Assembly: GCA_025059045.1 (NCBI GenBank)
Contig: JANXEA010000002.1
Coordinates: 10,798-74,797 of the forward strand
Length of the DNA stretch: 64,000 bases
From: Candidatus Bathyarchaeota archaeon
Lineage (GTDB): Archaea > Thermoproteota > Bathyarchaeia > Bathyarchaeales > DTEX01
Reading direction: 5' to 3'
Of the stretch, positions 2,410 through 51,154 are shown in pieces. The number at the start of each line of letters is the position of its first letter. Position 1 is the stretch's first letter. Both the position numbers and the translations under genes were made by a program. The notes under the pieces were generated by a model that was given only the letters and a program-made list of their open reading frames with translations, was not told the DNA's origin and searched no databases.

Positions 2410-4701
2410 GTGGCGAATAGATTGGAAGGGGGCTCAGAAAAAATCGAACACCCAAGAAGTGGGCTTACACCTAAGGTTCTAGTGATAGGCATAATACTAT
2501 CGATCTTTGCAGCGTTTTTCAACCAGTCCGAGTATGTAGACTTCTACGAGACCGTTGGGGCGTTGACCCATCTTGATAGCGCCTTCATGCTTTTCCCGGG
2601 AGCGCTACATACGACGGTACTTGGCGGAATCTTTCTAAGCCTAATCACTATTGGTCTTATCCTGCTTATCGACAGGCGGGGGAGATTCTCTAAGCAAGAG
2701 CTAGCAATGATATTCATAATAGGTGTGCTAATCACCTCCATTAACCTTTCAAAAGATGGGTTCATGTCAGGCGAGGATATCCATGAATATATGGCGCCGA
2801 TATGCTGGTATTTCGAAAGCGAGGCGCGCCAAAAGGAATTTTTAGCTCTCTATGCTGGCACTGTCTGGTGTCCAGGACAATTCTCGAATGCAAGCTATGT
2901 GCGAAGCGTACTTAAGGGAAATTTGCTGCAGGGGACGATGATGCCCATAGATTGGGGAGCATGGATGCCTCTTATCGCATACAGAGTGTTATCGCTTACG
3001 GGAATGGCATACCTTGGTGTGGCTATAGCCCTCCTGGTTAGAAGATCATTCATCGAGATCGAGGTGCTTTCCTTCCCATGGGGTGAGATAAATCTCGTCG
3101 CTTTTGAAGAAACCTTAGCTTTCATTAAGGGAGAAGATGCAGCCGGAAGGAAGATTCGAAGACCTCTCATCCTAAGCTTCCTAATCTTCTTCTTCCTCTT
3201 CTTCTCCATGTATGCGCCAAACAACATTCTCTGGCTAGCAGGCGTTAAAGGAGTATCATTCAAAACATGGATGCCATGGTGGACTTATCCGGAAAAGAAC
3301 CCGACTGTTGGAGCGCTCCAATGGTGGACTTCAGACAACATCTTTGAGGTGGACCCCACATTGCTAGGACTATCTTTCCTTCCATGGGTGGCCCTGCTGA
3401 TTCATCTGTGGCCAGTTAACCATGCAGCCTTCTTCATTATGCCTATTGAGGTTCTAATTGGATGCTTTGTAGGTGACATCTTCTTCGAGTGGATATATCC
3501 GATGATACTCTACTCCATAGGACGCCTTCCTACATGGAAAGCCACGGACGCTGTCTATGGGGTAGCTAGAAGCGTTGCTAGCGCTTGGTATGGTGCAGGA
3601 GTATATCTTGGATTAGGTCTATTCATACCATTCGTTATAATTCCACTTTGGAAAAACAGATCGGTCTTCAGTCCAATATTCAAGGCGGCGGCAGGAAGGA
3701 AAGTGAAGAAGGAAATAGATCCCAACGCGCCCACATCATACACTAGTGTATGGATACTTGTCTTGGCCTCCATAATAATGATACTTGCTGGCTTCACGAT
3801 TGTCGGATGGCAGATTACATGGGGTCTACCCATAATACTCTTGTCCTTCGCAGTCGGGATAGGTCAGCTAAGACTAATAGCAGTTGGAGCCGCCTTCATC
3901 TTTGCAACGTACGGATTTGCAAACTTTGACCCCGGACAGTTCCCTGGATCTATGAATGCCTTCCAACGGCACATTACAGCAGCGATATTCGGGCTAGCGG
4001 ATCCTTACAGGGTCATGGATCCGGCAATGTGCACCTTTAGCGCATTCTGGGGTGGAATGACGGGATATGGCGGAACATTCGGCTTCAGAATATGGTGGCT
4101 GATAATGGGAGCCGCCTCGGTGCTCGCAGCCTTCTATATTGCGAATAGAGTGAAACTTGAGGGCAAAGATGTTCTTAAGGCCGCGCTGATATTTATACCG
4201 GTCTCATTGATACTCTTCGATGTCTGGCACATAGCCTCAATATACCTCAACGATGTTCTTTCAGGGCGCTTCTTCAGCATAAGCCTAATCCAGAAAATGG
4301 TGAGAAGGGCTCTCGTAAGGTCTGTTGGCTCTATAGGAATCACGTTGCCAAGCGGAGAAGCAGTCATGGAGATATACACGGTCAGAACAGCATTCGTGGT
4401 CTTAGGAATAGCAATAACCACAACCCTATATATTCTCAGAGATAAATTCGAATGGTTCAGGATCTCGCCTGAAGGCTTCTGGTTCGGTGTCGTTATGGGA
4501 CCGACATGGACTCTATCATTGGCGATGCTGATAATCAAGTATCTGAGTACCAGAGTTGGAGGTGCGACATTCTATGAAAAGATCGCTAAACCGATAGCCA
4601 TAGGCATAATAATAGCCTTCGGTGCTAACATCTTCATACAGCACTGGTTCCAGCTGGCATACAAGTGGCAGACGGCTTTCGGAATAAATTACGCCCCTTG
4701 A
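2410..4701 (+). CDS. Polytopic membrane protein, module A gene 1 (function unknown; one of four paralogs in this window)
   Basis: A 763-aa ORF that is hydrophobic throughout. It shares the motifs GRFSKQELAMIF and IEIEVLSFPWGE with ORFs 4790, 26100 and 28309. A T7 tract follows the stop. Confidence 0.8.
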   Translation: MANRLEGGSEKIEHPRSGLTPKVLVIGIILSIFAAFFNQSEYVDFYETVGALTHLDSAFMLFPGALHTTVLGGIFLSLITIGLILLIDRRGRFSKQELAMIFIIGVLITSINLSKDGFMSGEDIHEYMAPICWYFESEARQKEFLALYAGTVWCPGQFSNASYVRSVLKGNLLQGTMMPIDWGAWMPLIAYRVLSLTGMAYLGVAIALLVRRSFIEIEVLSFPWGEINLVAFEETLAFIKGEDAAGRKIRRPLILSFLIFFFLFFSMYAPNNILWLAGVKGVSFKTWMPWWTYPEKNPTVGALQWWTSDNIFEVDPTLLGLSFLPWVALLIHLWPVNHAAFFIMPIEVLIGCFVGDIFFEWIYPMILYSIGRLPTWKATDAVYGVARSVASAWYGAGVYLGLGLFIPFVIIPLWKNRSVFSPIFKAAAGRKVKKEIDPNAPTSYTSVWILVLASIIMILAGFTIVGWQITWGLPIILLSFAVGIGQLRLIAVGAAFIFATYGFANFDPGQFPGSMNAFQRHITAAIFGLADPYRVMDPAMCTFSAFWGGMTGYGGTFGFRIWWLIMGAASVLAAFYIANRVKLEGKDVLKAALIFIPVSLILFDVWHIASIYLNDVLSGRFFSISLIQKMVRRALVRSVGSIGITLPSGEAVMEIYTVRTAFVVLGIAITTTLYILRDKFEWFRISPEGFWFGVVMGPTWTLSLAMLIIKYLSTRVGGATFYEKIAKPIAIGIIIAFGANIFIQHWFQLAYKWQTAFGINYAP

Positions 4702-4727
4702 TAAGCCCTTAGACAACTACCCCCATA

Positions 4728-4734
4728 TTTTTTT
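4728..4734 (+). terminator. Oligo-T tract (archaeal-type termination signal) after module A gene 1
   Basis: TTTTTTT lies 27 nt after the stop codon at 4701. Confidence 0.35.
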
Positions 4735-4789
4735 AAACTGCAAAAACCTTAAAAAAAATTTATAATCATAATCCAAAAAGAGTCAAAGG

Positions 4790-6733
4790 ATGCCGCATAT
4801 GTACGAAGAGAACGAGTACAGGTCAGGACTGACAAAGTATTCTGTCCTAGCAATTCTGTATGCAATTGTAGTTTTCATACCTTCAGGTATGTACCTAGAC
4901 CTAATGCTGGGTACTGGAGGAGCGGCGAGTAGTCTATTCACACTCATCCTATTTGTCGAGCTTGGAAGGCTTTCAAAAATCGACATCTCAAAGCAGGAAG
5001 CCGCAATAATACTCATGTTTGCTGGAGGGATAGGGTTTAATGCGATGAACCTAGTTTACAGATCATGGTTTGTTAAGAGCGACTTTGCAAAAGCATTCGG
5101 TTTCGAGAAAGAGATACCGTGGTGGTATGCGCCTACATCGGACAGTCTTGCGTATGAATCGCGAAACATCTTTCATAGGGACATGATTGCGCCTTTACTG
5201 ATTTTAATATCGTTGACCTTAATCGGTCTTTTAGTGAGCTGGGGATGGAGTATGCTTGGAAAGGAAATATTCATTGAGAATGAGAACCTTCCCTTCCCAT
5301 TAGCCAAAATGAACGCTGATCTTATCCTCGTAATGACCAGCGAAAGAAGAGAATATCGAGTCAAAATCCTGAGTCTATGCGCCCTGATTGGTCTCTCATA
5401 TGGGATGATGGTTTATGTATGGCCTTTCTTTGTGCAGGTTACCACCGGGATCCCATATGAGAGAGCCTCCCCGCTTCCTTTACCCTGGATCGACCTAACA
5501 CGATATACAGAGATTATGCTGCCAGGGGCAGTAATCGGTATCTCCACAGACATTAGTTCATATCTGCTTGGTTTCATAGTTCCATTCGGGCATATAGTGC
5601 AGATATTTATAGCATCAGTTGCAATATTTATTATTGGAAATTACTTATCTATCAGACTCTCTCCCCCTTTTGGAATAAGGGACTGGTGGTTTCCAGGTTT
5701 CTCCGCTCAGACACTGGCTCAGCGCTCAATCCTCTACATGTGGGCTAGTCTCCAAATTGGTTTCTCACTTGCAGCTGGTCTACTTCCCCTAATTTCACAG
5801 CCAAAAATGCTTAGGAGGACATTCAGTCAACTCTTCACGCTTCGGGCTAGGAGCCAAGACAGGCGAACAGAGCCTATTCCAGGCGGCCTGCTCCTAGGAG
5901 CACTCATTCCAATAACGATAGGCTTCATAGTCCAGTTATGCTGTCTCCTTTATTTTGTTCCAGAATGGGTTGGGCAGAACCCATGGGTTCTAGCAGCGTT
6001 CCCATCACTTCTATTCCTAAACATGCTCACACGTTCTCGTGCCCAGGGTGAAACTGGACTTTCACCCAGTCTAGGTCAAATAGAAAACTTTATATATTAT
6101 GCGACTAATGCTCCCGTGAAGGTTTGGTTCTCGCCGAATCCCGGCTTCTCATATTCTGAGGGGCTCAGTGGAACACCATTCAGCACATGGAGTGGAAATG
6201 TCCATGCGATAAAGATAGCTGAGTTAACCAAGACGAAATCATCCTCTCTTCTGAAGACAACACTTATATTCGCGCCGGTAGCCATAATCCTCTCATTGCT
6301 CTTCACCCAAGCCTTCCTTAGCATAGCTCCCATACCCTCAGGAAGATATCCTGGAACAGTCATATACTGGCCGATATCGGCTACCTATACCTCCATTTGG
6401 GTTGGGGGAAGAGCAGCAGGCCTCTTCAACATTAGCCATGTCGGATTGGCGGTGTTGATAGTTGTGGTTCTTCACTTAACGTCAGTTTTTCTCAGAATTC
6501 CAATATCGGTGATCGCTCTTGCAGTAGGGGTAGGCACATTGCCTCCGAATGCGATAGCCTACCTAATTAGCGGACTGGCTTCTCTTCTAATACGGCGGAT
6601 ACTCGGCGAAAAGTTCTGGCAAGAGTATAGAAACATCATAGCCGCTGGTGTTACTCTCGGCTTAAGCATAGCGGTCTCCATAGCGGTCTCCCTTATGCTT
6701 GTGGACGCTTCAAAGCTCTCTCTTCCATGGTGA
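4790..6733 (+). CDS. Polytopic membrane protein, module A gene 2 (function unknown; paralog family)
   Basis: A 647-aa hydrophobic ORF with motifs SKIDISKQEAAIILMF and FIENENLPFPLAKMNADLI. These match the equivalent positions of ORF 28309 (SNLSRQEVLILYY, YVERLNYPFPYAVVDASI). It ends 6 nt before the next gene. Confidence 0.8.
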   Translation: MPHMYEENEYRSGLTKYSVLAILYAIVVFIPSGMYLDLMLGTGGAASSLFTLILFVELGRLSKIDISKQEAAIILMFAGGIGFNAMNLVYRSWFVKSDFAKAFGFEKEIPWWYAPTSDSLAYESRNIFHRDMIAPLLILISLTLIGLLVSWGWSMLGKEIFIENENLPFPLAKMNADLILVMTSERREYRVKILSLCALIGLSYGMMVYVWPFFVQVTTGIPYERASPLPLPWIDLTRYTEIMLPGAVIGISTDISSYLLGFIVPFGHIVQIFIASVAIFIIGNYLSIRLSPPFGIRDWWFPGFSAQTLAQRSILYMWASLQIGFSLAAGLLPLISQPKMLRRTFSQLFTLRARSQDRRTEPIPGGLLLGALIPITIGFIVQLCCLLYFVPEWVGQNPWVLAAFPSLLFLNMLTRSRAQGETGLSPSLGQIENFIYYATNAPVKVWFSPNPGFSYSEGLSGTPFSTWSGNVHAIKIAELTKTKSSSLLKTTLIFAPVAIILSLLFTQAFLSIAPIPSGRYPGTVIYWPISATYTSIWVGGRAAGLFNISHVGLAVLIVVVLHLTSVFLRIPISVIALAVGVGTLPPNAIAYLISGLASLLIRRILGEKFWQEYRNIIAAGVTLGLSIAVSIAVSLMLVDASKLSLPW

Positions 6734-6739
6734 AATTGG

Positions 6740-9700
6740 ATGAATATAAGTGGAGGAATAATGTCATCTAAAAGGCAAGTATGCAAATGGATCAAGATTT
6801 TATTAATGGCGAGTATAATGCTCATCAGCTTTTTCAACCTAACCCAGATTTACCGCGCAGATCAAATTTTAACAGTCACCTCAACCCCCTCAGAAATGGA
6901 CTATCTTAAACTCGCAAGTATGGTAGACATGGAACTTGTCAAGCATCATCTTTACATGTTGTCAAAAGGGATCTATGAAATATCTGGTGTGCACAGTCGC
7001 GCCACGGGGACTCTGGGAAACGAGCTTGCCGCAAGATACATTTATGAAGAATTTAATAGACTAATGGAGAATGTTTCCATTCAGAGTTTCAGAGTTCCAG
7101 TACCGAAGAGTTACGGCGCCAATATTACGTTTCCTGACGGCAGCGTCATAAAATTATATCCAGTGCTACCTAACCTAGTTTGCCCCTCAACCACGCCGCC
7201 TGAGGGGATAAGTGGCACACTTCAATACGCCCGTGAAGGGTACCTTAAAGACTTCGACGGAATGAGGATTGAAGGGTCAATAGTTATATTGGATTATGAA
7301 TCTGGAAATCGATGGCTTAATGCCATGAAGCTGGGAGCCAAAGCCGTAATTTTCCTGCCGCCCAAAGATCCATTAAACAGTTTCTCCCCATACGGGCATC
7401 ATCACACCCACCCGAAGTATCTTGAGAATTTCCCAGTCTACTTCCCCCGCTTCTATGTGAAGGAGGAAGACTTGAAGAGTCTTTTCATCAATCTAGGCAA
7501 GAATGTTACAATAAAATCAACTGTTAGATGGGAGAATGCTGAATCTTGGAATATAATTGGCTTCATTCGAGGAGAGAACCCGAATGTCATCTTCGGGATC
7601 TCCTCATATTATGACTCATACTCGTTTGCTCCTGATCTTGCGCCAGGAGCCCAGGACGCATGTGGAATTGCAGCACTACTTGCCCTTGCTAAACACTTCA
7701 ACGAACATCGGCCTAAGGCGACGATAATATTCATCGCATTTGGAGGCCACTATCAGACAGTTGCAGGTGCACTTCAATGGGCAGAGAGTAGGGAGTATGC
7801 GGAAATAAGCCAAAAGATCTGGATGATACTTAACCTAGACCTTTCCACTGGGTCAGATGCCCTTCATGTTACAAATGTGGCTCACCTCTGGACCCACGCT
7901 CAGGCTGGCCACACAGAAGCCTATATCGGGATAGGCAGGCATCTTGAGAATATGCGAAAAGCAATATCGGAAGCATATGTTCGGGCAGGCTTAGAACCGC
8001 CTACAGTTTGGACTACATACATTCAAATGAGGACTGGGGGTCCTGGAGACCCGCCTACCAACTATCATGAACCCCATCCGAATAGGGCGTTCCTGACGGA
8101 ATTAGACGCCTTCGACCCTTGGGGAAGCAGAGCGCCTGACTATTGCAACCCAGCCTTCTTCAATATCATTACGGCGAAGGATATTCGTCCATACATCTTC
8201 ACACCATTCGATACATATGACAAGTTGAATTTCGAAAACCTCGAGAAACAACTGCGATATATATATGCGTTAATTCTAACTTTGTATTCGAATGAGGACG
8301 TGCAGTGGCTTATAGAGAACCCGCTAAGATCATGCGCTCCAAGCGGGCGTGTCCAAAGAAATGGAGCATTTGTAGGGCAAACAGCCTTCTGGGACCCCAA
8401 AACGACATGGTATAAACCAGTTCCTAACCTCCTTGTAGTCGCAAGAATGTACTACAGCGTAAATAAGGCTTCAGGTTGGGACGGATGGGGAGGAACAGGC
8501 CCAACATATTACAGGTTCTTCACATACTCAGACGAGAACGGCACCTTTAGGTTCCCATATACTGTCCGAGTATCAACAAAAGCCTGGGTCGGAACAGATG
8601 ATGAAGTATACTTTGAAGCTTATGCCATAGATCCTGAAACAGGCCAGATAGTTGTGGGTCCAGATCTTGGACGGCGAAGCATGATTCCATATCCCTTCGC
8701 TAATACTGTTTGGGAGGGTAAATATGGAGATTGCTTCCTCGGATACCTCACTGTACAAAACGTTACTAGCACAATAATCGTGTCTGACAATTATGCTATT
8801 GGAGAATTTGTAAGTAGAAATCTCTATGATCGTTTTCCTCACCCATCAATCACGGTGAATACGTTCCTCTCGCATGTCCAACCTGAACACTACGCCGTCC
8901 TTTATGACCCTGCAGTCGGTCTCGCGGCGATTCTTCTCTCAACAAACGAGCCTATAGAGGTGATGATCGGGAGGGGAAGAGTGCCTTATGGTCTCATTGT
9001 TAACGCCAGCCGAGAAAATATGCTTGGGACGGGTATAACTTTTGGATATGGACAAACTATCCTAAAGTACCCATATTTAATTTACTGCGAGAATCTGAGA
9101 TGGGTTATCGAAGAAAGATTTAGGTTGGTGGAGCAGTATAAGCCCGTGGATCCCTACATTTATGGTCGCTTCATAAGGGGTGTACAAAGCCTAGAGAAAG
9201 TGTATATCGCATTAAATAATCTATCATACTCGGAAGCCTACGCCTATATGATAGATGCGTGGAGCGACTTATATTGGGCATATGCCAATCAGAGAGGCGA
9301 AATTGAGAACATCGTTTCCATCGCGCCTTATGTCGCCTTCTTTTTGGTGCCCTTCGCCTATTTGACTGAAAGGCTCATACTAAAATCAAGTGGTAGTAAA
9401 CGCATAGCATCGACAATATTAATACTAGTACTCATCTTCTGTATAATTTATACTGTAAACCCGACGTTCAAACTTTCAGGAAACCCGGTTCTAATGGTCA
9501 TAGCTTTTAGTACAGTTATCCTGTCAATCCCGATTCTTTTCATAATACTTAGTAAGGTTGTAGCATTTTTGAATGAGATAAGAATTAAGGTTTTTGGTCG
9601 CCACGAGATCCAGGTAGGCCGAGTAGAACTTGCAATTGCAGCTATTCAGCTGGGAATAGAGAATATGCGAAAGAGGAAGGGGAGGACCGCGCTTGTTCTA

Positions 9701-11356
9701 GTGTCAATAGCGCTCACCATAAGTGCGCTAGTAGCCATGACATGGTTTATTCAAGACGTGCCAGTGATTCCGCAAAGGTTCGTTCCGCCTGAAACCGGCT
9801 ATCAAACGATCCCATACAATGGTATACTTATCCATTACAATGAATGGGGGGGAGAAAGAGAAGGTCACTGGATAGGTGAGCTAGTGGAAAATTATGTGGA
9901 GATCAAGTACTCAAGCTTAGCAATGATAGCGAAGAGGGCGTGGTATTGGCCATGGTACTATGATGACGAAGCCGGAATAGACATCACACATGAAAATAAC
10001 TCAATCAAAGTATATTGCCTCTACGGGTTATCTCCAGAGGATCATCATTTCACAAGTTTCCTACCAAACTTTAACGGAAGATGGTTCCTATCCACAGATA
10101 AATATGCGTGCATACTAATGAGTTCCCACGCCCAATCACTTAAGGCAACAATAAATTCTATAATAGAAATTCAGGGAATGCCCTACAAGGTTATAGGAAT
10201 AATAAGAGATGAAGAGATCTCCTCTGCAGGAGAACTTGACGGGTACAGTGTTCTGCCAGTAGATATTCGAGCATCAAAAACTGTGGACGCGTGGGTAACA
10301 TATTATGAGCCATCTGAGGTTATTTTCATCCCGTACTGGACCGTCATTAACATTTGGGGAGCGCGTACTGGATGTATAAGCCTAAAAATCTCGAACGCAA
10401 GTCTCGCGTGGACCGTCGTGCAAGAGCTCTATGAGAGATTCGGAAGCCTATCCTTCTGGGTTTGTATGGATGGAAAAGTCTACACGCCGACACGCATTTC
10501 GCAAACGCAAGTATTCGGGCTTGAATACATGTTTCCCGCCATCGGAATAAGCATGCTTTCAATATTGAATATGATGCTCGCATCAGTCATGGAACGGAAA
10601 AAAGAAATTTCCGTATATTCAGTGCTTGGTGCCTCGCCATTAAACACCGCGCTTATGTTCCTAACCGAGCATGCAGTCCATGCGGTGATAGGCGGCGTTT
10701 GTGGTTTCATCGGAGGAAACGTGCTCTTATTGCTAATTGCGAGACAGCTAGGAATAAACTACACGTACTCAATAATCCAATTCAATGTCTCTGTGCTAGG
10801 AGCGATGCTGATGGTGATACTTGTGAGCGTATACCCGGCGACGATCATTGCAAAACTCGTCACACCGAGTTTAGAGCGAGCTTGGAAAATGCCAACAAAA
10901 CCAGTCGGCGATAACTGGGATATCCCGATGCCATTCTTCACCTCAGGGGAGGAGGTTGGAGGGGTCCTGGAATTCATGAGAGAATTTTTCTCTGGACATT
11001 ATGATTCGAACGCGCCGGTTTTCTGGGTTGAAAGCATAAAATACGTTGAAGGAGAGGCGGATGGGGTCCCATATATGGGGTATAGCATGCAAGTACACCT
11101 CTTCCCATATGAGACAGGTATCATTCAAGAAGCGAATGTAATCGCAAAGACCGAGGATGCAAGATGGAGGATCTTCCTCCTGACCAAGAGGTTAACGGGC
11201 ATGCGTGATAGGTGGATTCAGCAGAATAGAGGGTTCGCCGACGCTGTTAGAAAACAGTTGTTACTTTGGAGATCACTTAAGCCGGAAGAGAAAATGGAAT
11301 ATATCAAAAAATCAGGGGGTGTGACGTTTAACAAAGGCCATTCTGTATCAGATTAA
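6740..11356 (+). CDS. Giant chimeric envelope protein, module A gene 3: N-terminal anchor, PA/M28-peptidase-like ectodomain, 3 TM, MacB/FtsX-type permease module, conserved C-terminal cytoplasmic domain
   Basis: 1538 aa.
- PA-like: GSIVILDYESGNRWLNAMKLGAKAVIF.
- M28-like: WNIIGFIRGENPNVIFGISSYYDSYSFAPDLAPGAQDACGIAALLALAKHF.
- FtsX N-terminal TM: IENMRKRKGRTALVLVSIALTISALVAM (~nt 9657).
- FtsX core: LNMMLASVMERKKEISVYSVLGASPLNTALMFLTEHAVHAVIGGVCGFIGG (~nt 10560-10730).
- C-terminal domain from VTPSLERAWKMPTKPVGDNW (nt 10859 to the end). Confidence 0.85.
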   Translation: MNISGGIMSSKRQVCKWIKILLMASIMLISFFNLTQIYRADQILTVTSTPSEMDYLKLASMVDMELVKHHLYMLSKGIYEISGVHSRATGTLGNELAARYIYEEFNRLMENVSIQSFRVPVPKSYGANITFPDGSVIKLYPVLPNLVCPSTTPPEGISGTLQYAREGYLKDFDGMRIEGSIVILDYESGNRWLNAMKLGAKAVIFLPPKDPLNSFSPYGHHHTHPKYLENFPVYFPRFYVKEEDLKSLFINLGKNVTIKSTVRWENAESWNIIGFIRGENPNVIFGISSYYDSYSFAPDLAPGAQDACGIAALLALAKHFNEHRPKATIIFIAFGGHYQTVAGALQWAESREYAEISQKIWMILNLDLSTGSDALHVTNVAHLWTHAQAGHTEAYIGIGRHLENMRKAISEAYVRAGLEPPTVWTTYIQMRTGGPGDPPTNYHEPHPNRAFLTELDAFDPWGSRAPDYCNPAFFNIITAKDIRPYIFTPFDTYDKLNFENLEKQLRYIYALILTLYSNEDVQWLIENPLRSCAPSGRVQRNGAFVGQTAFWDPKTTWYKPVPNLLVVARMYYSVNKASGWDGWGGTGPTYYRFFTYSDENGTFRFPYTVRVSTKAWVGTDDEVYFEAYAIDPETGQIVVGPDLGRRSMIPYPFANTVWEGKYGDCFLGYLTVQNVTSTIIVSDNYAIGEFVSRNLYDRFPHPSITVNTFLSHVQPEHYAVLYDPAVGLAAILLSTNEPIEVMIGRGRVPYGLIVNASRENMLGTGITFGYGQTILKYPYLIYCENLRWVIEERFRLVEQYKPVDPYIYGRFIRGVQSLEKVYIALNNLSYSEAYAYMIDAWSDLYWAYANQRGEIENIVSIAPYVAFFLVPFAYLTERLILKSSGSKRIASTILILVLIFCIIYTVNPTFKLSGNPVLMVIAFSTVILSIPILFIILSKVVAFLNEIRIKVFGRHEIQVGRVELAIAAIQLGIENMRKRKGRTALVLVSIALTISALVAMTWFIQDVPVIPQRFVPPETGYQTIPYNGILIHYNEWGGEREGHWIGELVENYVEIKYSSLAMIAKRAWYWPWYYDDEAGIDITHENNSIKVYCLYGLSPEDHHFTSFLPNFNGRWFLSTDKYACILMSSHAQSLKATINSIIEIQGMPYKVIGIIRDEEISSAGELDGYSVLPVDIRASKTVDAWVTYYEPSEVIFIPYWTVINIWGARTGCISLKISNASLAWTVVQELYERFGSLSFWVCMDGKVYTPTRISQTQVFGLEYMFPAIGISMLSILNMMLASVMERKKEISVYSVLGASPLNTALMFLTEHAVHAVIGGVCGFIGGNVLLLLIARQLGINYTYSIIQFNVSVLGAMLMVILVSVYPATIIAKLVTPSLERAWKMPTKPVGDNWDIPMPFFTSGEEVGGVLEFMREFFSGHYDSNAPVFWVESIKYVEGEADGVPYMGYSMQVHLFPYETGIIQEANVIAKTEDARWRIFLLTKRLTGMRDRWIQQNRGFADAVRKQLLLWRSLKPEEKMEYIKKSGGVTFNKGHSVSD

Positions 11357-13693: not shown

Positions 13694-13798
13694 ATCTGCC
13701 TTAACGCTTCGCAGCCTAAATATAAATTTAATGTTTCAAAAAATATTCTCAATTCAATTCGCAAATTTCCATAATTTTATAGTCAGTCAAAGCGTTTT

Positions 13799-15316: not shown

Positions 15317-15436
15317 ATTACCATCTCCAACTAGCCTATACAGTTTTGCTGAAGCAGAGCAGGATAAAAAAATATTTTTAAGAAGAGGACATTAGCGCAC
15401 ATAGGGATTCATCAGATTTGCTGATATTACTTTTTC

Positions 15437-16662: not shown

Positions 16663-19600
16663 ATGCATGGGTCCCGGAAGCTCTATGGATGGAAAGAGGC
16701 CGCTACATACATCCTTGCAGTCATACTTTTGGTGAACGCTCAAATTATTTCATCCGCATGTGAGCAGACCCCACGATCGATAGGCCGCATCTACATAAAA
16801 GTTACAGACGCAAACACAGGGGAACCTATCTCAAACGCAACTTTAATAATACTTGACATTACCACAGGGCTTGAGGAGTCAAAGATAAGGTCAACAGGTC
16901 AAAGCGGAGAGTACGTTTATGAGGAAGCGGTCCCTGAAGGGAAATATTGGATATACGCCTATAAGGGGAACTTGACTAGCGGTTATATGGAATATGCGCC
17001 TGCCGGACCATTTTTAATACATTTCTCAATCTTTGACACCGTGAAGAATCTGACGGTCCGGCTTGTTCCATGCGGAACCATCAGGCTTAAAGGTCCAATA
17101 TGGATGGCTGGCATATCTGAGCTACTAGAGAATTTTGCGGTGACGATTATTGACCCAGCCTGTGGAAAGCCTCCTATGTTAAATGGAGACTATATCAGCC
17201 AGTACAATTCTACAACAAGATTTTATCTTGCGGAGAAAGACTTGCTAAATAAGAGTCTCGTCTTCGTTCCTGCAGACGTTAACCTAGATCTGTTGGTGGA
17301 GGCCACATTCTATAGAAGAGAGGTGGGATTTAGATCCTTCTCGTTCAGGATTGAGAATGTCTCAGTCCGCAAGTCAGAGGAAGCCGCCTATGAACTCTCA
17401 TATTACAGTTTACGTGAGAGCATTAAAGATGTGAATAGTGTTGTCCAATCGGTCATGGAGGAGTTATCTTTTCTCCAGAGTATCGGTTTCTACTTTGTGC
17501 AAGAACGGTCAAATCTAGTGGAGCAGATCAGCACGATAAATGATGCGAGGAGAGAATTGGATAGGCGGGACTATTATGAATGTTGGAAGGCCCTTAGCAA
17601 AGCTTACAGTGAAAGTCTAAGTGTTAGAGAAACCCTGCGTTATTATGTTGGGGTGAGTACTCAGAGTGCGGTTTACCTTCCTACATTCCTAGCCGTTTAT
17701 AGCGTAATACTTGCTTTCTTCCTCTTTGAGGATGACCGGAAAAAAGTTGCTGCCAGCCTCATATTTTATATAGTATTTCTCGTGGCCCTATTCCAAATTT
17801 ATCCTGGTACAAGAACCATAATTAACCCAGAGACTGGAAACATTCGTTTATTTTTGTCAGCCTCTATTCTATCCATAGTCTGTGTAATGGTGCTAGTATT
17901 TTTCCTGCAGCGCCGACCGAGGCTTGGAATTGAAGGTTTAACGACGTTCAGGGATGTACTGGCCACGTTCTTCTCAATGGGGAAACGCCAGATAAGAGTA
18001 AGAAGATCTAGAGGGATCCTCACATTATCATCTGTGATCCTTCTGATCCTAGCATTCACCTCACTAACTTCTATGGGATATATTTATGGGCTAACATACG
18101 AGAAGATACCATACACATCGAACGTTGAGGGGATATTGATAAGGTCGACAGGAAATGAAACATTCATTTATGGACAGAATGTTTATAGGCTTTTTATTCC
18201 ATTCGGATCCAGCCTTGTGTACGCTCTTTCTCAAGATCCCGCAGTCGAGCATGTCGCTCCAAAGATAGAATCATATCCCAGCACAGAACCTATTGGAAGG
18301 CTCTTCTCAAATAGATCATCATTATCGATTTACGGTTTGATCGGCATAGTGCCAAGTGATGAGGCGCAATTTACAAGACTGAACAATGCGATCGTGAATG
18401 GCGAATACCTAAAAGACGGAGACCTTGAAGGATTACTCATAAGCAGCGAAGCGGCTTCAGAATTAGGAGTAAACAGTGGTGATAAGGTTATATTCTCGAT
18501 TGGAGGAATTGTCTCAAACTTTACAGTCCGAGGGATTTTCGGCAGCACATCCTACCAGCAGTTAAGGGATATAGATGGGCAGCCGTTTGGACCTAAGAAG
18601 GCTGCATTTTCCAACGGCACCATCTCATACTCATTATGTGAGCCGAAAGAAGTCATAATATTAAACTTTGAAGCGGCGCTGGAACTTCAGGCAAAGATAA
18701 ACGTTCAGAATAAAAGGGCTCCTGAAGAACCAGGCCCCCTCAATCAGCTCTCCAGAATATCAATAAAGCCTAAGCCAGCTGCGGACATAAAAGGTATGGT
18801 CGAGACCATTGTGAAAAGCTTCGGCAAAGACGCTTATGTCTCTAAAGATGGTGCAGTATACCATTATTACATTGGGTTTGCTTATGAGGCAAAGGGAGCT
18901 CTTGAAATCCTTGTTCCACTGGTGATGGCCCTCATAAACGTCGGCGCCGTCATGCTCAACGCAGTTTACGAGAGAAGCAAGGAGATGAAGATTCTGACGA
19001 CAATGGGATCAAATCCCATGCAGCTCGCTTCATTATTCATTGCGGAGGCAATGACGCTTGGAATGGTTGGTGGTGGGCTCGGATACATTTTCGGCCTAGG
19101 ATTCTACCGTATAATGCTCTTGACTGGAACTGGAATCGAAGTTAGAGAAAAAGTGGAATGGTATTGGAGCGCCATATGTCTATGTCTGGCAGTCTTGGCT
19201 TGTGTTCTCTCTACACTAAGACCAGCTCTACTCGCGATAAAGATGTACACACCATCAATGGTTCGGAAGGCGAAGATCTCTGAAGAGGAGAAGGAGACGA
19301 GAATGGAGGAGATTTTCAAAGTATATCAGGAGAGAAGCATGTCCATGCCAGTAAAAGTGAAGGAAGCGGAGATACTCATATTCACGACTTTCATAAAGTC
19401 AAGAATGGAGGAGATGAGATCAGGAATCTACGAGAGGATTGAAGACGTGGTGGATGAACCTGAAGTACAAACGCCCACTGGTAGGGTCGTACGCAAAGTA
19501 AAGTTCAGATACAATTGCCCACAGGAAAACCTAAAGATAAATAATGAATTAGTATGCAGCAAAGACAAAGGAGAAGACAAGTATAGGGTCCATCTAGTAC

Positions 19601-19713
19601 TTAATACTGACCGAATAGAGATATCGGAAAAGTGGATCTACAGAATCACTGATCTAATCCGCGACATTCTAATGGAATGGGTTCAAAACAAGGACAAAAT
19701 ATTAGGCAGATAA
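16663..19713 (+). CDS. CarboxypepD_reg-like ectodomain fused to a MacB/FtsX-type permease and the same class of C-terminal cytoplasmic domain
   Basis: 1016 aa.
- N-terminal anchor, then IYIKVTDANTGEPISNATLIILDITTG (carboxypeptidase-regulatory-like beta-sandwich).
- FtsX N-terminal TM: KRQIRVRRSRGILTLSSVILLILAFTSL.
- FtsX core: LNAVYERSKEMKILTTMGSNPMQLASLFIAEAMTLGMVGGGLGYIFG.
- Tail YTPSMVRKAK...MPVKVKEAE resembles VTPSLER.WK...IPLKVEHFE of the giant proteins. Confidence 0.8.
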   Translation: MHGSRKLYGWKEAATYILAVILLVNAQIISSACEQTPRSIGRIYIKVTDANTGEPISNATLIILDITTGLEESKIRSTGQSGEYVYEEAVPEGKYWIYAYKGNLTSGYMEYAPAGPFLIHFSIFDTVKNLTVRLVPCGTIRLKGPIWMAGISELLENFAVTIIDPACGKPPMLNGDYISQYNSTTRFYLAEKDLLNKSLVFVPADVNLDLLVEATFYRREVGFRSFSFRIENVSVRKSEEAAYELSYYSLRESIKDVNSVVQSVMEELSFLQSIGFYFVQERSNLVEQISTINDARRELDRRDYYECWKALSKAYSESLSVRETLRYYVGVSTQSAVYLPTFLAVYSVILAFFLFEDDRKKVAASLIFYIVFLVALFQIYPGTRTIINPETGNIRLFLSASILSIVCVMVLVFFLQRRPRLGIEGLTTFRDVLATFFSMGKRQIRVRRSRGILTLSSVILLILAFTSLTSMGYIYGLTYEKIPYTSNVEGILIRSTGNETFIYGQNVYRLFIPFGSSLVYALSQDPAVEHVAPKIESYPSTEPIGRLFSNRSSLSIYGLIGIVPSDEAQFTRLNNAIVNGEYLKDGDLEGLLISSEAASELGVNSGDKVIFSIGGIVSNFTVRGIFGSTSYQQLRDIDGQPFGPKKAAFSNGTISYSLCEPKEVIILNFEAALELQAKINVQNKRAPEEPGPLNQLSRISIKPKPAADIKGMVETIVKSFGKDAYVSKDGAVYHYYIGFAYEAKGALEILVPLVMALINVGAVMLNAVYERSKEMKILTTMGSNPMQLASLFIAEAMTLGMVGGGLGYIFGLGFYRIMLLTGTGIEVREKVEWYWSAICLCLAVLACVLSTLRPALLAIKMYTPSMVRKAKISEEEKETRMEEIFKVYQERSMSMPVKVKEAEILIFTTFIKSRMEEMRSGIYERIEDVVDEPEVQTPTGRVVRKVKFRYNCPQENLKINNELVCSKDKGEDKYRVHLVLNTDRIEISEKWIYRITDLIRDILMEWVQNKDKILGR

Positions 19714-22949: not shown

Positions 22950-22960
22950 AGAACCCTTTC

Positions 22961-22966
22961 TTTTTT
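22961..22966 (+). terminator. Oligo-T tract after ORF 19860
   Basis: ccctttcTTTTTTatt begins 8 nt after the stop codon. Confidence 0.35.
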
Positions 22967-23064
22967 ATTAAGCGACTCACAAAAAAGGAATCTGGTTTGA
23001 GAAAAAGCTTAAAAGTTAAACCATATTAATTAATAAGGAACTCTTAGTTAGGAGGAGATGAAAT

Positions 23065-26099: not shown

Positions 26100-28163
26100 A
26101 TGAGCGAGGAAAGAATACATGCAAGGGTTTCCCCGATAGAGATCTTGGTGCTCATACTTCTGGCGTGGGTCTTCTTTTCTGTAGGCTACATTACAAGAAC
26201 TTTCTCACCAGCTAAATACTGGGTTGTAGACGGGATGTTCGTGCCATACATCTATGTGCTGCTCATCCTTGGGTTGATCGGTAAGCGTGGAATAAGAGGC
26301 AGAGGTGTTAGTAAAGAATTCGCGGTCTCCTTAGTCTTTGTATTAGCCATATTGACCGGAAAGTTTTTCTTCTTCGCGGGGTCGCCGGATGCCAATTTCA
26401 TAGACGTGATTGCTGGAACATACAGCAGCTGCATTGTAGCCCCCATCTTTCCATCAGGCGCTGCAGACTATGTTCGGCAACTACTGCCAGCGTGGCTGGC
26501 CCCACATTACGCAGAAGATGTCGCTAGCTACTATCGAGGAGGCGGCGGGCAGAACTGGTCTGTTCTGATAGGCCCAATAATCTCTTGGACGCTTCTGCTA
26601 ATCTCCGTCGTGCTAGTAACATGGCCCATGCTATTCCTAATACTTGGTCCATATTGGCATGACACGGAGAGGATACAGTTTCCTATGGCGCTGCCAGCGG
26701 TGTACCTCACTAATAACACATTTCCAGTTTCGGAGCATGATAATGCTGAATGGCTGTCAATCTTCAATCTTGCCAGTGCAAGAAACAAGGCTTTCTGGGC
26801 GGCTTTCTTAATCGGGTTGGTCCTTAATGTACCGTTCATAATCTCACAGGTTGCGCCACAGGTTCCACTCGGAGCGGTGGTCGGCGGAGGATACGGAACA
26901 TATCCAATCAACCTTGGCCCATACTTTAGCGGTATGCTTCCATCAGCTCATCTTTCGGGCCAGATCGTCGTATACCTAATTCTCCTATACGCTATCCTAC
27001 CATTAGACATTTCAGCTTCAATAGCTATCGTGGGAATGTTCTTCAGTCTAATCTACAGACCTCTCGTTGTAAGTTCAGGAATAGTCAGAGGCACGGATCC
27101 CGGTCAAGTCTGGCCCATTCCACATCTGGAGTTTAGGGTGGGCTCTTACATTGGTCTTGGGCTAATAGCATTCTGGGCTACTAGAGACAGATGGATAAAG
27201 GCTTTCAAGTCACTTAGCAGGGACTTCCAAGTCGACGGCGTCTCAATGAGGGCGGGAATGCTACTAATGTTTGCAGGCGTAATTATGATGCTGGGGATAC
27301 TGACAGCGGCGGGAGGAAATCTCTTCATGCAGATAATATGGTTCCTCCTCTTCACCCTTATAAACGTCGGATGCGCATACATATGGGCCAACTCGATATG
27401 GCTTGGTGGGGACTGCCATGGATACATGAGCTGGAGACTTGGACATTACATTGGCTCGAGCATCGGCGTATGGTCTGCTTCGGCGCCCCAAATGAACCAG
27501 GCTCTGGCGGTCTACAGTCTCTCATGCTCAAGCATGGGCCACTGCACCGGCGCATACCAGTCGAATAGCCCAATAGCCCCGCCCTTCATGGCAATAGCAT
27601 ACGGATATGCACGTGGCACTAACGCAAACATTAGGAAAGTCTTCCTCTACACAATAGTGCCCGTCATAGCGCTGGTTCCATTCGCATTGGTATTCAATAC
27701 ATATGTTAACAGCCACGCTGGAATAAGTAACCTTGGAGAATACAGCGGCAGCATTAGCTGGCTGGGAACGATTAGGGCTGTCCTCGACTGGGGCAACAGA
27801 AGCCTATCCTACGCGACAGGCGTAATGCCGTTCAGTCAATATTGGATAGCAACAATCATAGCGGCCGTGATAGTAATAGTGGTCGCAGCGCTCCGCTCAT
27901 TCCTTCCATGGTTCTTCCTACATCCAGTTGGCTTTGCAATCGGCTTCGCTGGGTTAGGAGGCTGGAACTTCTGGCTCAACGCCGTTGTAGGCATAGCCTT
28001 AAGGATTTCGCTAAGCAAGATTCTAGGTCCAAAGAGAACGATGGAATATCTAGTCCCGATTTTAGCTGGTCTGGCAATAGGCTTAGGTGCATTATACCTG
28101 ATCGTCGGCATCTATGTCCTCTGCACAAGTTCAATCCCGAATCTGTTGACGCTTTGGAAGTGA
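26100..28163 (+). CDS. Polytopic membrane protein, module B gene 1 (paralog of ORF 2410)
   Basis: A 687-aa hydrophobic ORF with motifs RGVSKEFAVSLVF and HDTERIQFPMALPAV at positions equivalent to ORF 2410. A T7 tract follows the stop. Confidence 0.8.
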   Translation: MSEERIHARVSPIEILVLILLAWVFFSVGYITRTFSPAKYWVVDGMFVPYIYVLLILGLIGKRGIRGRGVSKEFAVSLVFVLAILTGKFFFFAGSPDANFIDVIAGTYSSCIVAPIFPSGAADYVRQLLPAWLAPHYAEDVASYYRGGGGQNWSVLIGPIISWTLLLISVVLVTWPMLFLILGPYWHDTERIQFPMALPAVYLTNNTFPVSEHDNAEWLSIFNLASARNKAFWAAFLIGLVLNVPFIISQVAPQVPLGAVVGGGYGTYPINLGPYFSGMLPSAHLSGQIVVYLILLYAILPLDISASIAIVGMFFSLIYRPLVVSSGIVRGTDPGQVWPIPHLEFRVGSYIGLGLIAFWATRDRWIKAFKSLSRDFQVDGVSMRAGMLLMFAGVIMMLGILTAAGGNLFMQIIWFLLFTLINVGCAYIWANSIWLGGDCHGYMSWRLGHYIGSSIGVWSASAPQMNQALAVYSLSCSSMGHCTGAYQSNSPIAPPFMAIAYGYARGTNANIRKVFLYTIVPVIALVPFALVFNTYVNSHAGISNLGEYSGSISWLGTIRAVLDWGNRSLSYATGVMPFSQYWIATIIAAVIVIVVAALRSFLPWFFLHPVGFAIGFAGLGGWNFWLNAVVGIALRISLSKILGPKRTMEYLVPILAGLAIGLGALYLIVGIYVLCTSSIPNLLTLWK

Positions 28164-28183
28164 TCAATCGCTTCCACCCATTA

Positions 28184-28190
28184 TTTTTTT
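28184..28190 (+). terminator. Oligo-T tract after module B gene 1
   Basis: ccattaTTTTTTTaat lies 21 nt after the stop. It mirrors the T7 tract after module A gene 1. Confidence 0.35.
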
Positions 28191-28308: not shown

Positions 28309-30210
28309 ATGAAGCCGAAGACGGGGCTAAGTTGGCGGATCATTCTGGCGATGGTAACATCGATCTTCCTCTTCATTCCAGTCAACATCTACTCATACTT
28401 TATTACTGGTGTTGTTCAAGGGTCCGTGGCGGTCTTCTTCATAACGCTGGTATTCTCGGAGATTGTCAGGCTTACTGGCTCAAATCTTTCAAGACAGGAG
28501 GTTCTCATACTATACTACGCAGCAGCTTGGGGAGGCACCGCGATGCCAATATACTACAACATAATTTATAGAACATTTTTTGTTAACTCGCCGCTTATCA
28601 GCTCCTACTCCATCTCCGGGAGACCGCTTATCGAGTATATTCCCACATGGCTTGTTCCTCTTCCCGGATCATACTCTGCCCGCACATTCTTTCAACCAGC
28701 TTTCTTAACGCCGCTTATCGTATGGTTCGTTTGGAGCGTCCTAATGCTGGCCATTACAATCTTCCTCTCAATAATGGCCTCCCACATCTACGTTGAGAGA
28801 CTGAATTATCCATTCCCATACGCTGTTGTAGATGCTTCGATAGCGACCTTTCTAGGCGAGAGACCGAGAGAATATGTGAAGTACTTTATTCCCGCGTTCA
28901 CCGTCGGCGTCATTTTCGGTTCGATAGCCTATCTGCCCCTTTCATTCGGCGGCGTGCTCATACCAATACCATATCTTGACCTAACAGGCATTATAGAGGA
29001 GATGCTTCCTGGAGCCCTCTTAGGGCTAGTCACCGTCTTATCATCATATTTTGGGGGGCTAATTGTACCAGTTAACCAGACAATCCCAATGCTCATCTCC
29101 TCCATCTTAATATGGATTATCATGAATTCGCTCTTCATAACAACCTTTCCTGGGGCAGCTCCAGAATGGGTTAGAGAATACTCGAAGGGAATGGGGCTTA
29201 TTGCCGTCCAGAACCGATCATATCTTCGGATATGGTTTGCACCGCAGATAGGCTTCACAATCGCCGCCTCAGCCTTCCTCATTCTCTTCGAGGCTAGGAA
29301 GCCGATAGTTGAAGCCCTAAAGGAGATGTTCCATGCAGGGGGCTCCGAGCAGCCTGGAGTAATGGTTGGGCTACCATCGCTTAGAGTGTCATTTCTTTTA
29401 TGGTTGTTATTTGGCTGCTTATCTGTAGTCTATTTCCACATTCTTGTACCCGAAGTCAGTCTCCTAATACCCATCCTCTACGTGTTCCTTTTCGGTTTCT
29501 TCATAGCAATGGTTGTAACCGCGTTTAGAGGTGAGACGGGTTTTTCTGTTCCTGGGCTTCCAGGATGGACTTGGCACACACTAATATACTTCTCACCATA
29601 TCAAGGATACGCCGGCTTCATATTAGAGCCTCCGGCAATAGACTCTGGCGGGCCAGCGTACTTTTCCCAGCAGGTTAAGGCATCGTCAAACGTGGGTGCA
29701 AGGCCCAGAGACCTTCTCATAGTATGGGTGCTTGGATACTTCCTTTCCCAGTTATCCGGTCTCATCTCGCTGGATTTCTTCTGGAGAATAGCGCCAATCC
29801 CGTCATCTGCATACCCCTTCACAGTCTACAGCGCGCTTAGCTCCGCATATAACGATGCGATGATTGTGTCTAGACAATTGAAAATAACCTTAGAGAGCAT
29901 AGGATTGCCGGCGCTAGCCCTGTTCGTGGCCTTGATAATCGGGGATCAGATCTCAAGGGTAATAGGCCTTTCTTTTCCGATTGTGGGCTTAGTTATGGGT
30001 TTATACCTTCCTCCCCACTCCGTTATCCCACTCTTCATCGGATCCCTGGTCAGCCGATACCTAGCCCCTAAACTTTTCGGCGGGGCGGAAAGATGGCGGT
30101 GTATAATGGGCTATATTGTTGCAGGAGAGCTTTCAGGAGAAGGTTTAATGCTTATGCTTAACGTTGTCCTAGCTCTCATGTATAAGTCGGCGTGGATGTG
30201 GCCATGGTGA
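28309..30210 (+). CDS. Polytopic membrane protein, module B gene 2 (paralog of ORF 4790)
   Basis: 633 aa. It aligns with ORF 4790 along its length (SRQEVLILYYAAAWGG, ERLNYPFPYAVVDASIATF, PGALLGLVTVLSSYFGGLIVP versus PGAVIGISTDISSYLLGFIVP). Its 3' end overlaps the next gene by 19 nt. Confidence 0.8.
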   Translation: MKPKTGLSWRIILAMVTSIFLFIPVNIYSYFITGVVQGSVAVFFITLVFSEIVRLTGSNLSRQEVLILYYAAAWGGTAMPIYYNIIYRTFFVNSPLISSYSISGRPLIEYIPTWLVPLPGSYSARTFFQPAFLTPLIVWFVWSVLMLAITIFLSIMASHIYVERLNYPFPYAVVDASIATFLGERPREYVKYFIPAFTVGVIFGSIAYLPLSFGGVLIPIPYLDLTGIIEEMLPGALLGLVTVLSSYFGGLIVPVNQTIPMLISSILIWIIMNSLFITTFPGAAPEWVREYSKGMGLIAVQNRSYLRIWFAPQIGFTIAASAFLILFEARKPIVEALKEMFHAGGSEQPGVMVGLPSLRVSFLLWLLFGCLSVVYFHILVPEVSLLIPILYVFLFGFFIAMVVTAFRGETGFSVPGLPGWTWHTLIYFSPYQGYAGFILEPPAIDSGGPAYFSQQVKASSNVGARPRDLLIVWVLGYFLSQLSGLISLDFFWRIAPIPSSAYPFTVYSALSSAYNDAMIVSRQLKITLESIGLPALALFVALIIGDQISRVIGLSFPIVGLVMGLYLPPHSVIPLFIGSLVSRYLAPKLFGGAERWRCIMGYIVAGELSGEGLMLMLNVVLALMYKSAWMWPW

Positions 30211-51152: not shown

Positions 51153-51154
51153 CT

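Follow-up and report, generated by a model that had tools for sequence, protein, structure and literature searches.

Here, we describe a three-gene membrane module, hereafter the triad, encoded in a 64,000-nucleotide (nt) stretch of DNA from a Candidatus Bathyarchaeota archaeon (assembly GCA_025059045.1, contig JANXEA010000002.1, positions 10,798 to 74,797), which we refer to as the window. Our central reading, to which we give an even chance, is that these three genes supply the part that faces the substrate in a modular Type VII (MacB/FtsX-type) ATP-binding cassette (ABC) machine whose motor is shared in trans in archaea. Copy A begins with gene 1 (g1A, 2410..4701, + strand), which has a GTG start and encodes a polytopic membrane protein of 763 amino acids (aa) that falls in the DUF6785/DUF6784 family and is a remote OPT-superfamily paralogue of gene 2. 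Following a spacer of 88 nt (4702..4789, +), gene 2 (g2A, 4790..6733, +) encodes a divergent OPT family member of 647 aa, and gene 3 (g3A, 6740..11356, +), 6 nt further on, encodes a 1,538-aa fusion with eight predicted transmembrane (TM) segments and both termini inside; the NCBI start of g3A lies seven codons downstream, giving 1531 aa. Copy B consists of g1B (26100..28163, +; 687 aa, DUF6785 + DUF6784), g2B (28309..30210, +; 633 aa, an OPT-like paralogue) and g3B (30192..34784, +; 1,530 aa, architecture as in g3A), the last overlapping g2B by 19 nt. A preliminary description of this DNA had listed copy A as three co-directional open reading frames (ORFs) with gaps of 88 and 6 nt and a T7 tract, which reading the sequence bears out. 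It had also placed a recurrence of the arrangement at 26100-34784, where the second set of ORFs is found, and had guessed at Thermoproteota; the source is a Bathyarchaeia metagenome-assembled genome (MAG).

Hydropathy resolves gene 3 into a 1+3+1+3 pattern of TM segments, that is, an anchor, an ectodomain of ~820 aa, three TM, one TM, a second ectodomain of ~260 aa, three TM and a tail of ~165 aa. Specifically, g3A comprises a PA + M28-fold extracellular domain (6902..8314, +; residues ~55-525), a beta-rich extracellular region of unassigned fold (8357..9064, +; ~540-775), a helical stalk and, ahead of the FtsX module, a 3-TM block (both within 9071..9550, +; ~778-937), a MacB/LolC-type (Type VII ABC) permease module (9617..10855, +; ~960-1372) and a family-specific cytoplasmic alpha+beta tail domain (10856..11353, +; 1373-1538). 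Pfam recovered Peptidase_M28 (6.7e-11), FtsX (9.2e-14) and MacB_PCD (4e-5; 24.4 bits, below the cut-off of 27) in g3A, and M28, MacB_PCD, FtsX (4.7e-11) and PA in g3B; FtsX is above cut-off in both copies, and the PA match is weak and found in copy B alone. Two AlphaFold models of g3A, built from 45-sequence alignments, cover residues 780-1538 (predicted local distance difference test, pLDDT, 88; predicted template modelling score, pTM, 0.72) and 1-1000 (pLDDT 82, pTM 0.81). In Foldseek searches the membrane core matched only Type VII ABC permeases (MacB 5gko at 1e-11, LolCDE, HrtBA, Spr0694, YbbAP, YtrEF and BceAB; E 1e-11 to 1e-5), and phmmer searches with the permease module matched MacB 5lil, LolF and YtrF. 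The module runs TM1, ~260-aa extracytoplasmic domain, TM2, coupling helix, TM3, TM4, and by topology and modelled fold it is a complete Type VII (MacB/FtsX-type) ABC permease. The cytoplasmic coupling helix between TM2 and TM3, the element by which such permeases engage their ATPase, reads 'ERKKEISVYSVLGA', aligns to 'ERTKEIGVRMAIGA' of MacB and keeps the MacB motif 'ER..EI...G'; it is the most conserved segment of archaeal gene 3 (residues 1284-1312; 0.65 vs 0.37-0.55 elsewhere), with a bacterial value of 0.67. The domain parse given in the preliminary description (anchor, PA/M28 ectodomain, 3 TM, MacB/FtsX module, tail) thus agrees with hydropathy, Pfam, AlphaFold and Foldseek, and its remark that the FtsX partner appears fused on fits the structure of gene 3.

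The large ectodomain has the M28 alpha/beta fold with an inserted PA domain, matching BSAP/YwaD 6hc6 (E 1e-23), 2ek8, AM-1, PaAP, GCPII and the transferrin receptor (E 8e-20) in Foldseek and 6hc6 and 2ek8 in phmmer. Catalytic residues were counted in a 42-sequence alignment of the gene 3 family. The general-base Glu (first residue of the 'EE' motif) occurs in none of the 42 members, being Gly in 34, g3A and g3B included, and Ala in 6, and the second His ligand (the 'YHTP' His) is also absent throughout; the first His ligand is Tyr in 23/42, g3A among them, and the Glu ligand is His in 31/42. Because the catalytic Glu and the second His ligand are lacking in all 42, the gene 3 ectodomain is predicted to be a catalytically dead PA/M28 pseudo-peptidase across the whole family. 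The earlier label of an M28-peptidase-like ectodomain therefore stands for the PA/M28 fold but not for the activity that the name evokes, and the database name 'M28 family peptidase', carried by the NCBI protein of a Candidatus Bathyarchaeota MAG to which g3A is 100% identical, is on the same evidence misleading for gene 3. A remodelled metal site (D292, E/D306, H337, D367) could still be present. That gene 3 might be a membrane-anchored, active M28 aminopeptidase feeding peptides to OPT transporters would suit the Pfam Peptidase_M28 match, the M28 fold, the NCBI name and the OPT neighbours; we find this highly improbable given the missing catalytic residues, a Pfam match that spans just the N-terminal half of the M28 profile, and the presence, among the structural matches in the PDB, of Glu-to-Ala mutants of PaAP and of GCPII, the latter titled 'inactive mutant'.

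Closer parallels to the ectodomain are the transferrin receptor, which we take to be a catalytically dead M28-fold protein, and nicastrin, presumably a dead M28-like substrate receptor. Like gene 3, both place a PA + M28-like ectodomain that has lost its catalytic residues on a membrane anchor for ligand or substrate recognition, but these eukaryotic proteins are single-pass and have no ABC permease fusion, and the likeness is at fold level only (14-18% identity). The Pfam Nicastrin domain is itself carried by one gene 3 homologue (P0107). Extra ectodomain modules also include F5/8 type C (discoidin, a sugar-binding type) and CHRD; the homologues concerned are P0058, P0103 and P0107.

As for the remaining parts of gene 3, the beta-rich region (~540-775) returned no Pfam match, is modelled mainly as beta strands with mixed confidence and is the least conserved region (0.37). 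The stalk and 3-TM block are common to g3A and a 1,016-aa protein encoded at 16663-19713 (hereafter g3s). We considered that gene 3 might be an internally duplicated FtsX permease, as in ADOP, BceB and YbbP, with the anchor and 3-TM block as a degenerate first module. This idea found no sequence support (when the 3-TM block was compared by hhalign with its FtsX counterpart, the probability was 0.2%, no better than gene 2 controls), although a topology of one TM, ectodomain and three TM, twice over, is still compatible with internal duplication. The tail domain is a compact beta-alpha-beta4-alpha2 unit, confidently modelled by AlphaFold and kept from archaea to Planctomycetes-Verrucomicrobia-Chlamydiae (PVC) bacteria. 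A scan of 1.84 billion representative proteins (clusters at 50% identity) found it in 1,197 of them, invariably as the last domain of a protein of the gene 3 type, and we read it as the signature domain of the gene 3/g3s chassis. Local Foldseek matches of the C-terminal model to PsbP and DcrB probably correspond to this tail.

Genes 1 and 2 had been called paralogous and left unplaced. The first claim holds at the profile level only: pairwise BLAST between the families is marginal, and hhalign joins them end to end (probability 100%, E 3.7e-43, 597 columns), with cross-matches between their hidden Markov models (HMMs) as well. The second does not hold, for both proteins are divergent members of the OPT superfamily. 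Specifically, g2A matches Pfam OPT (PF03169; E 1.4e-8, 34.4 bits vs a cut-off of 25.8) over profile positions 105-616 of 623, and 17/40 gene 2 family members match OPT and no other family (best E 7e-18). Pfam OPT returned no match for g2B or g1A alone; g2B scores 526.6 bits against the gene 2 family HMM. Gene 1 enters through its DUFs: g1B matches DUF6785 (PF20581; 4.6e-20, 72.1 bits) and DUF6784 (PF20580; 3.7e-6, 27.5 bits), both above their cut-offs, and g1A, which has no Pfam match, scores 250.6 bits (E 1e-77) against a gene 1 family HMM built without it. The same two DUFs both lie on neighbours of gene 3 in five further loci (L001, L002, L004, L007 and L153). Hydropathy gives 15 TM-like segments in g1A and 11 in g2A, and neither the single sequences nor a 40-sequence profile found a solved structure related to genes 1 and 2. 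We conclude from the profile comparisons that genes 1 and 2 are remote, anciently diverged paralogues within the OPT superfamily. The OPT family proper (TC 2.A.67) comprises oligopeptide and metal-chelate transporters; its members carry out secondary transport, for which no ATPase is required, and those characterised are importers. The triad proteins resemble them in that gene 2 passes the Pfam cut-off and gene 1 is remotely homologous to gene 2 along its whole length, but both are very divergent (17/40 gene 2 homologues match individually, and gene 1 sits in DUF6785/DUF6784), and they form an obligate paralogue pair beside an ABC-type permease, which is not known to have been described for OPT proteins. 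Most likely, genes 1 and 2 make up the translocation pathway and operate in concert with gene 3.

The association of the three genes is conserved. Full-length gene 3 homologues form ~90 clusters, chiefly from Bathyarchaeia, with remote relatives in Victivallales, Planctomycetota, Phycisphaerae and Lentisphaerae. With each species represented by a single genome, a scan run with a 16-sequence archaeal alignment (the full 42-sequence alignment being too divergent for use) returned 225 gene 3 relatives from Bathyarchaeia, Brockarchaeota, Thermofilaceae, other Thermoproteota, Armatimonadota and one Firmicutes MAG. For neighbourhood counts, ORFs were called in the fetched loci and classed with phmmer, and a locus was considered well flanked with >=5 kb on both sides. 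Among 25 well-flanked archaeal loci, gene 2 is present in 24 and gene 1 in 21, so that the condition under which the preliminary description would have been refuted, a triad whose genes are not neighbours in related genomes, does not hold, and gene 2 directly adjoins gene 3 in 38/42 archaeal loci. The gene order differs among loci (1-3-2 is commonest; the window has 1-2-3) and therefore points to a functional link rather than a merely inherited operon. Full-text searches on DUF6785/DUF6784, on FtsX + OPT + M28 and on Type VII ABC systems in archaea returned no description of a triad system, in keeping with the earlier statement that no characterised system matches, and gene 1 maps only as far as DUF6785/DUF6784. 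All triad parts belong to known superfamilies; the apparent novelties are the fusion itself, OPT-like partners that are obligate, a signature tail, a partner in the form of a bare FtsX and a motor that seems to act in trans.

In bacterial relatives, the triad-type genes share an operon with a candidate motor. In the eight well-flanked bacterial loci, gene 2 occurs in 7, a small FtsX in 7, an ABC ATPase in 6 and gene 1 in 1. The small FtsX is a bare 4-TM module that keeps the coupling motif and lacks an ectodomain. Armatimonadota operons run gene 3, gene 2, a 325-aa protein, a PqqD-like protein, small FtsX (209 aa) and ATPase. The ~300-325-aa protein and a 138-aa PqqD-like protein lie between gene 2 and small FtsX at L036:16628-18023 and also at L023:17737-19065; the former has no Pfam match, and PqqD is also found fused to a remote gene 3 homologue (P0108). 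The PqqD-like genes, of the peptide-binding RRE type, hint at peptide substrates. Two further bacterial loci, L007 (7475-19821) and L153 (8127-12918), hold small FtsX, ABC ATPase, DUF6785/6784 and gene 3 together, L007 with gene 2 as well and L153 in the order small FtsX, ABC, DUF6785/6784, gene 3. The latter had been a candidate for a second archaeal linkage of motor and triad, which was rejected on its CsgG and LpoB-like neighbours that show it to be bacterial.

In archaea, the one linked case is a Bathyarchaeota B63 locus (L084, with an archaeal Nre gene upstream), where an ABC ATPase lies directly upstream of gene 1 and gene 3 and shares 66% identity, from end to end, with the partner ATPase of Armatimonadota. 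Used as a probe, this ATPase fetched 80 metagenomic loci with ATPases 67-97% identical, which nearly always adjoin an FtsX of ~205-250 aa; the pair stands alone, beside gene 3 and gene 2, or beside ~1,000-aa g3s proteins. Two of these loci carry archaeal marker genes, namely L109, a 1.47-Mb contig with PolD small subunit, eRF1/Pelota and a CdvC-like MIT-AAA ATPase, and L148, with aEF1-alpha, and on account of these markers we assign their small FtsX + ATPase pairs to archaea. Motor-pair orthologues are common in Bathyarchaeia and Thermofilaceae, unlinked from triads. Across Bathyarchaeia, Thermofilaceae and Thermoprotei, conservation within the ATPase orthogroup stands at 81-95%, vs 25-35% identity among gene 3 paralogues; together with the several triads per genome and the unlinked pairs, this gives indirect support to a shared motor. 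Within the window, no ABC ATPase adjoins copy A or copy B. The sole ABC ATPase there is of the DrrA type with its own ABC-2 permease (50211-52102, -; ATPase 51155-52102) and is unrelated to the triads, and the 10 kb upstream of the window, as read on a 165-kb sister contig, hold only ABC-2 and ZnuABC systems. The earlier statement that the ATPase is missing is therefore correct for the locus but probably not for the system, given the bacterial operons, the unlinked archaeal orthologues and L084.

The mechanism that we favour would work as follows. Gene 3 would be the ectodomain-bearing permease subunit, with its dead PA/M28 domain outside acting as a fused receptor or effector and not as a protease. 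The motor would consist of the bare 4-TM small FtsX and the MacB-type ABC ATPase, encoded in the same operon in bacteria and elsewhere in the genome in Bathyarchaeia and other Thermoproteota, and one motor would probably serve several paralogous triads and g3s in trans. ATP binding and hydrolysis on the motor would act through the FtsX helices to move the extracellular domains of gene 3, which would capture, process or hand over an extracellular oligomer for import by the OPT-like pair; candidates are a peptide, glycopeptide or oligosaccharide freed by neighbouring secreted hydrolases. Published accounts of Type VII systems (FtsEX-EnvC, LolCDE, MacAB, YbbAP-TesA) describe ATP-driven FtsX helix movement that reaches extracytoplasmic domains, with the substrate not carried through the permease (e.g. 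PMC12646458, PMC7668044). A broader formulation is that of a hybrid machine class, in which a Type VII motor is shared in trans by interchangeable modules, each a dead-peptidase-FtsX protein with a heteromeric pair of OPT-fold channels, so that ATP-driven mechanotransmission outside the cell is coupled to import by way of a secondary-transporter fold; with its many copies and flanking enzymes, such a class would be the functional counterpart in archaea and Armatimonadota/PVC of bacterial polysaccharide or peptide utilisation loci and a main route of polymer-fragment uptake by Bathyarchaeia in sediments. We put this forward tentatively, as a doubtful extension.

Several observations weigh against a shared-motor importer. 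A MacB-type ATPase or small FtsX was found in 0/25 well-flanked archaeal triad loci, and none of the best 120 ATPase homologues could be tied to GCA_033581255.1, an assembly that carries the same gene string as the window. The linkage of the small FtsX + ATPase pair could be a coincidence, with the pair forming a transporter in its own right, and most Armatimonadota operons have no gene 1, meaning that the composition is not fixed. The substrate clues conflict: OPT, the PA/M28 scaffold and the PqqD-like proteins point to peptides and the neighbouring hydrolases to glycans. Among 111 flanking ORFs of 24 archaeal loci, a Pfam census gave a heterogeneous 140 families, the commonest being URO-D (6/111 ORFs). 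We know of no Type VII ABC system described with an OPT-type protein, nor of a precedent for the hand-over step. Finally, the physical association of the triad parts with each other and with the motor, the trans-energisation, the direction of transport and the substrate are all features that we infer.

The absence of motor genes around archaeal triads is also the starting point of an ATP-independent reading, the preliminary description taken literally, in which archaea have done away with the ATPase, gene 3 is a static membrane-anchored receptor or scaffold, much like an anchored binding protein, for two proton-driven OPT-like importers and its FtsX module and tail serve only to anchor or dimerise. 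Such an arrangement would agree with the secondary-transporter nature of OPT proteins; an input of another kind might come through the conserved cytoplasmic tail, and gene 1 occupies in archaeal triads the place that small FtsX + ABC take in most bacterial operons. However, no segment of archaeal gene 3 is better conserved than the coupling helix, which is kept to the same degree as in bacterial proteins accompanied by an ATPase; orthologues of the motor pair abound in these lineages, and L084 ties the ATPase to gene 1 and gene 3 in a Bathyarchaeota genome. Moreover, the tail is equally present in bacteria with the ATPase and is thus not a replacement for it. Taken together, we consider the ATP-independent reading unlikely.

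Compared with known systems, the shared-motor machine that we favour would be closest to MacB, LolCDE, FtsEX and YbbAP, with which it has in common the fold and topology of the C-terminal module (TM1, a Porter/Sabre-type domain and three TM with a coupling helix) and, in bacterial operons, a MacB-type ATPase. It differs in the N-terminal anchor, the ~820-aa ectodomain, the 3-TM block and the unique cytoplasmic tail added by gene 3, in a partner that is a bare 4-TM FtsX without ectodomain, in the obligate linkage to OPT-like proteins and in an archaeal ATPase that is not nearby. FtsEX-EnvC (and FtsEX-PcsB, -RipC and -CwlO) provides a Type VII module that controls a peptidase-fold extracytoplasmic partner, and the LytM domain of EnvC is also dead, but the pseudo-peptidase of gene 3 is M28/PA and not M23/LytM, it is covalently fused instead of separate, and the context of the triad is catabolic, not that of cell division. 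The host archaea, unlike the hosts of FtsEX-EnvC, have no peptidoglycan. The proposed logic of many divergent, scattered substrate-facing modules and one highly conserved motor elsewhere resembles that of group II energy-coupling factor (ECF) transporters; there is no homology, the ECF motor being EcfT + EcfA/A' with small S components, and motor sharing here would be by analogy. Several paralogous uptake-type sets per genome among differing polymer-degrading enzymes also recall the SusC/SusD polysaccharide utilisation loci of Bacteroidota, but the proteins and membrane architecture are unrelated, and the link of the triad to glycan enzymes is recurrent but loose.

A fourth related gene, g3s (16663..19713, +; 1,016 aa), lies between the two triads and was missed in the earlier count of three genes. 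It encodes an anchor, a CarboxypepD_reg-type ectodomain, three TM, an FtsX module and a tail; Pfam matches FtsX and CarboxypepD_reg, the protein is 23% identical to g3A residues 788-1384, and its tail aligns with that of gene 3 (hhalign 98.7%, E 2.4e-16). Orthologues of g3s directly follow gene 2 in four loci (L046, L047, L071 and L086) and adjoin the small FtsX + ATPase pair in six others (L118, L120, L125, L130, L133 and L148), so that g3s links triads and motor genomically. We regard it as a probable fourth component of the module.

The surroundings of the triads suggest polymer degradation. Downstream of copy A, three genes on the opposite strand (11378-16534, -) encode a weakly melibiase-like protein (771 aa), an alpha-L-arabinofuranosidase (505 aa) and a BNR-repeat sialidase-like protein (365 aa). 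Upstream of copy B (19860-24684, +) lie genes for two large, apparently secreted proteins, one combining pectate lyase, PKD and a PQQ beta-propeller (1,029 aa) and the other a PQQ propeller (539 aa), followed immediately before copy B by a DsbD_TM/SfLAP-like membrane protein (24737-25957, +; 406 aa). Both of the former end in a coiled-coil, DivIC-like segment, and the same combination of pectate lyase, PQQ propeller and PKD flanks a third triad (L004). Other archaeal triad loci contain fucosidase, GH43, GH172, GH66, GH15, tannase and pectate lyase, and bacterial loci contain sulfatases, GH106 and GH42. In the flank census, polysaccharide-related matches were sulfatase (3), pectate lyase (3), carrageenase-like propeller (3), fucosidase (2) and GHL6 (2). 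Overall, the link between triad and polymer degradation is no more than suggestive.

These neighbours bear on a regulator reading akin to FtsEX-EnvC, in which ATP-driven movement of the dead peptidase activates or positions secreted or anchored polymer-degrading enzymes (pectate lyases, PQQ-propeller proteins, glycosidases) and the OPT-like proteins merely import the products, much as amidases are switched on when FtsEX moves the dead LytM domain of EnvC. Degenerate peptidases as mechanical activators in Type VII systems have precedent in FtsEX-EnvC, FtsEX-RipC and FtsEX-CwlO, and triads are repeatedly accompanied by secreted pectate-lyase/PQQ-propeller/PKD proteins (in the window, at L004 and in the flank census). 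We nonetheless think it distinctly unlikely: no single enzyme family turns up regularly next to the triads, and it is the OPT-like proteins, not any hydrolase, that show tight 1:1:1 linkage. A different neighbour, the cis-prenyltransferase gene that adjoins copy B (34809-35591), would suit an extractor or exporter like LolCDE, HrtBA or YbbAP that pulls a lipid-linked or hydrophobic molecule (a lipid-linked glycan or surface-layer precursor) from the membrane, with the OPT-like proteins as flippases or exporters. As described in the literature, the characterised Type VII systems all act on outer-leaflet or periplasmic substrates, with no import across the membrane. However, the prenyltransferase gene is on the opposite strand to copy B and is not a conserved neighbour, the characterised OPT proteins work in the import direction, and the occurrence in one genome of several divergent paralogues, set near catabolic genes, speaks more for nutrient acquisition than for envelope biogenesis. 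We therefore rate an extractor as very unlikely.

With respect to the history of the module, g3A and g3B are 26-34% identical and g2A and g2B are 27% identical over their full length; BLAST found no match between g1A and g1B, and copies A and B have no DNA similarity. These values indicate that the two copies are ancient paralogues and not a recent duplication. The gene string of the window occurs on the 165-kb contig of GCA_033581255.1, and this assembly also holds the third triad, 30% identical to that of copy A. The genome thus has at least three triads plus g3s, and other genomes carry up to four paralogues.

Bathyarchaeia, Brockarchaeota and Thermofilaceae, which degrade organic polymers, are abundant and for the most part uncultured, and their capture and import of the products is poorly understood. 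The module is widespread, occurs in multiple copies and is common to Armatimonadota and PVC bacteria as well, and it may help abundant sediment archaea to take up polymer breakdown products. If our reading is correct, the reach of Type VII ABC mechanotransmission would widen to include archaea as well as nutrient uptake, an ABC-type motor would have its first functional partnership with OPT-fold proteins, and a second shared energising module would be added to the ECF transporters. Present names ('M28 family peptidase', 'FtsX-like permease', DUF6785/6784) say little on function, and the first misleads; revising it would correct a systematic mis-annotation that inflates the counts of extracellular peptidases predicted in sediment metagenomes.

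Finally, we note some features of the locus itself. The spacer between g1A and g2A (4702-4789) contains the T7 tract at 4728-4734, then an A-rich stretch, then TTTATAA (~4759-4765) ~25 nt before the g2A ATG. Judging by what is generally known of archaeal transcription signals, this looks like an oligo-T terminator followed by a promoter of the B recognition element (BRE)/TATA type, and gene 1 may be transcribed apart from genes 2 and 3. A comparable element of T7 + TAATTAATTA lies upstream of g1A, at about 2352-2372. A scan for bacterial promoters and terminators gave matches no commoner than in shuffled sequence, a null to be expected in an archaeon. Further downstream in the window, a solitary ECF-transporter S component (39596-40964, +; 186 aa) is overlapped by a 271-aa ORF without a Pfam match and has no EcfT or EcfA nearby, offering an example from the same genome of a module dependent on a motor encoded elsewhere. 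The window also carries tRNA genes for Ala-CGC (39069-39144), Val-CAC (52997-53071) and Arg-CCT (53216-53293).

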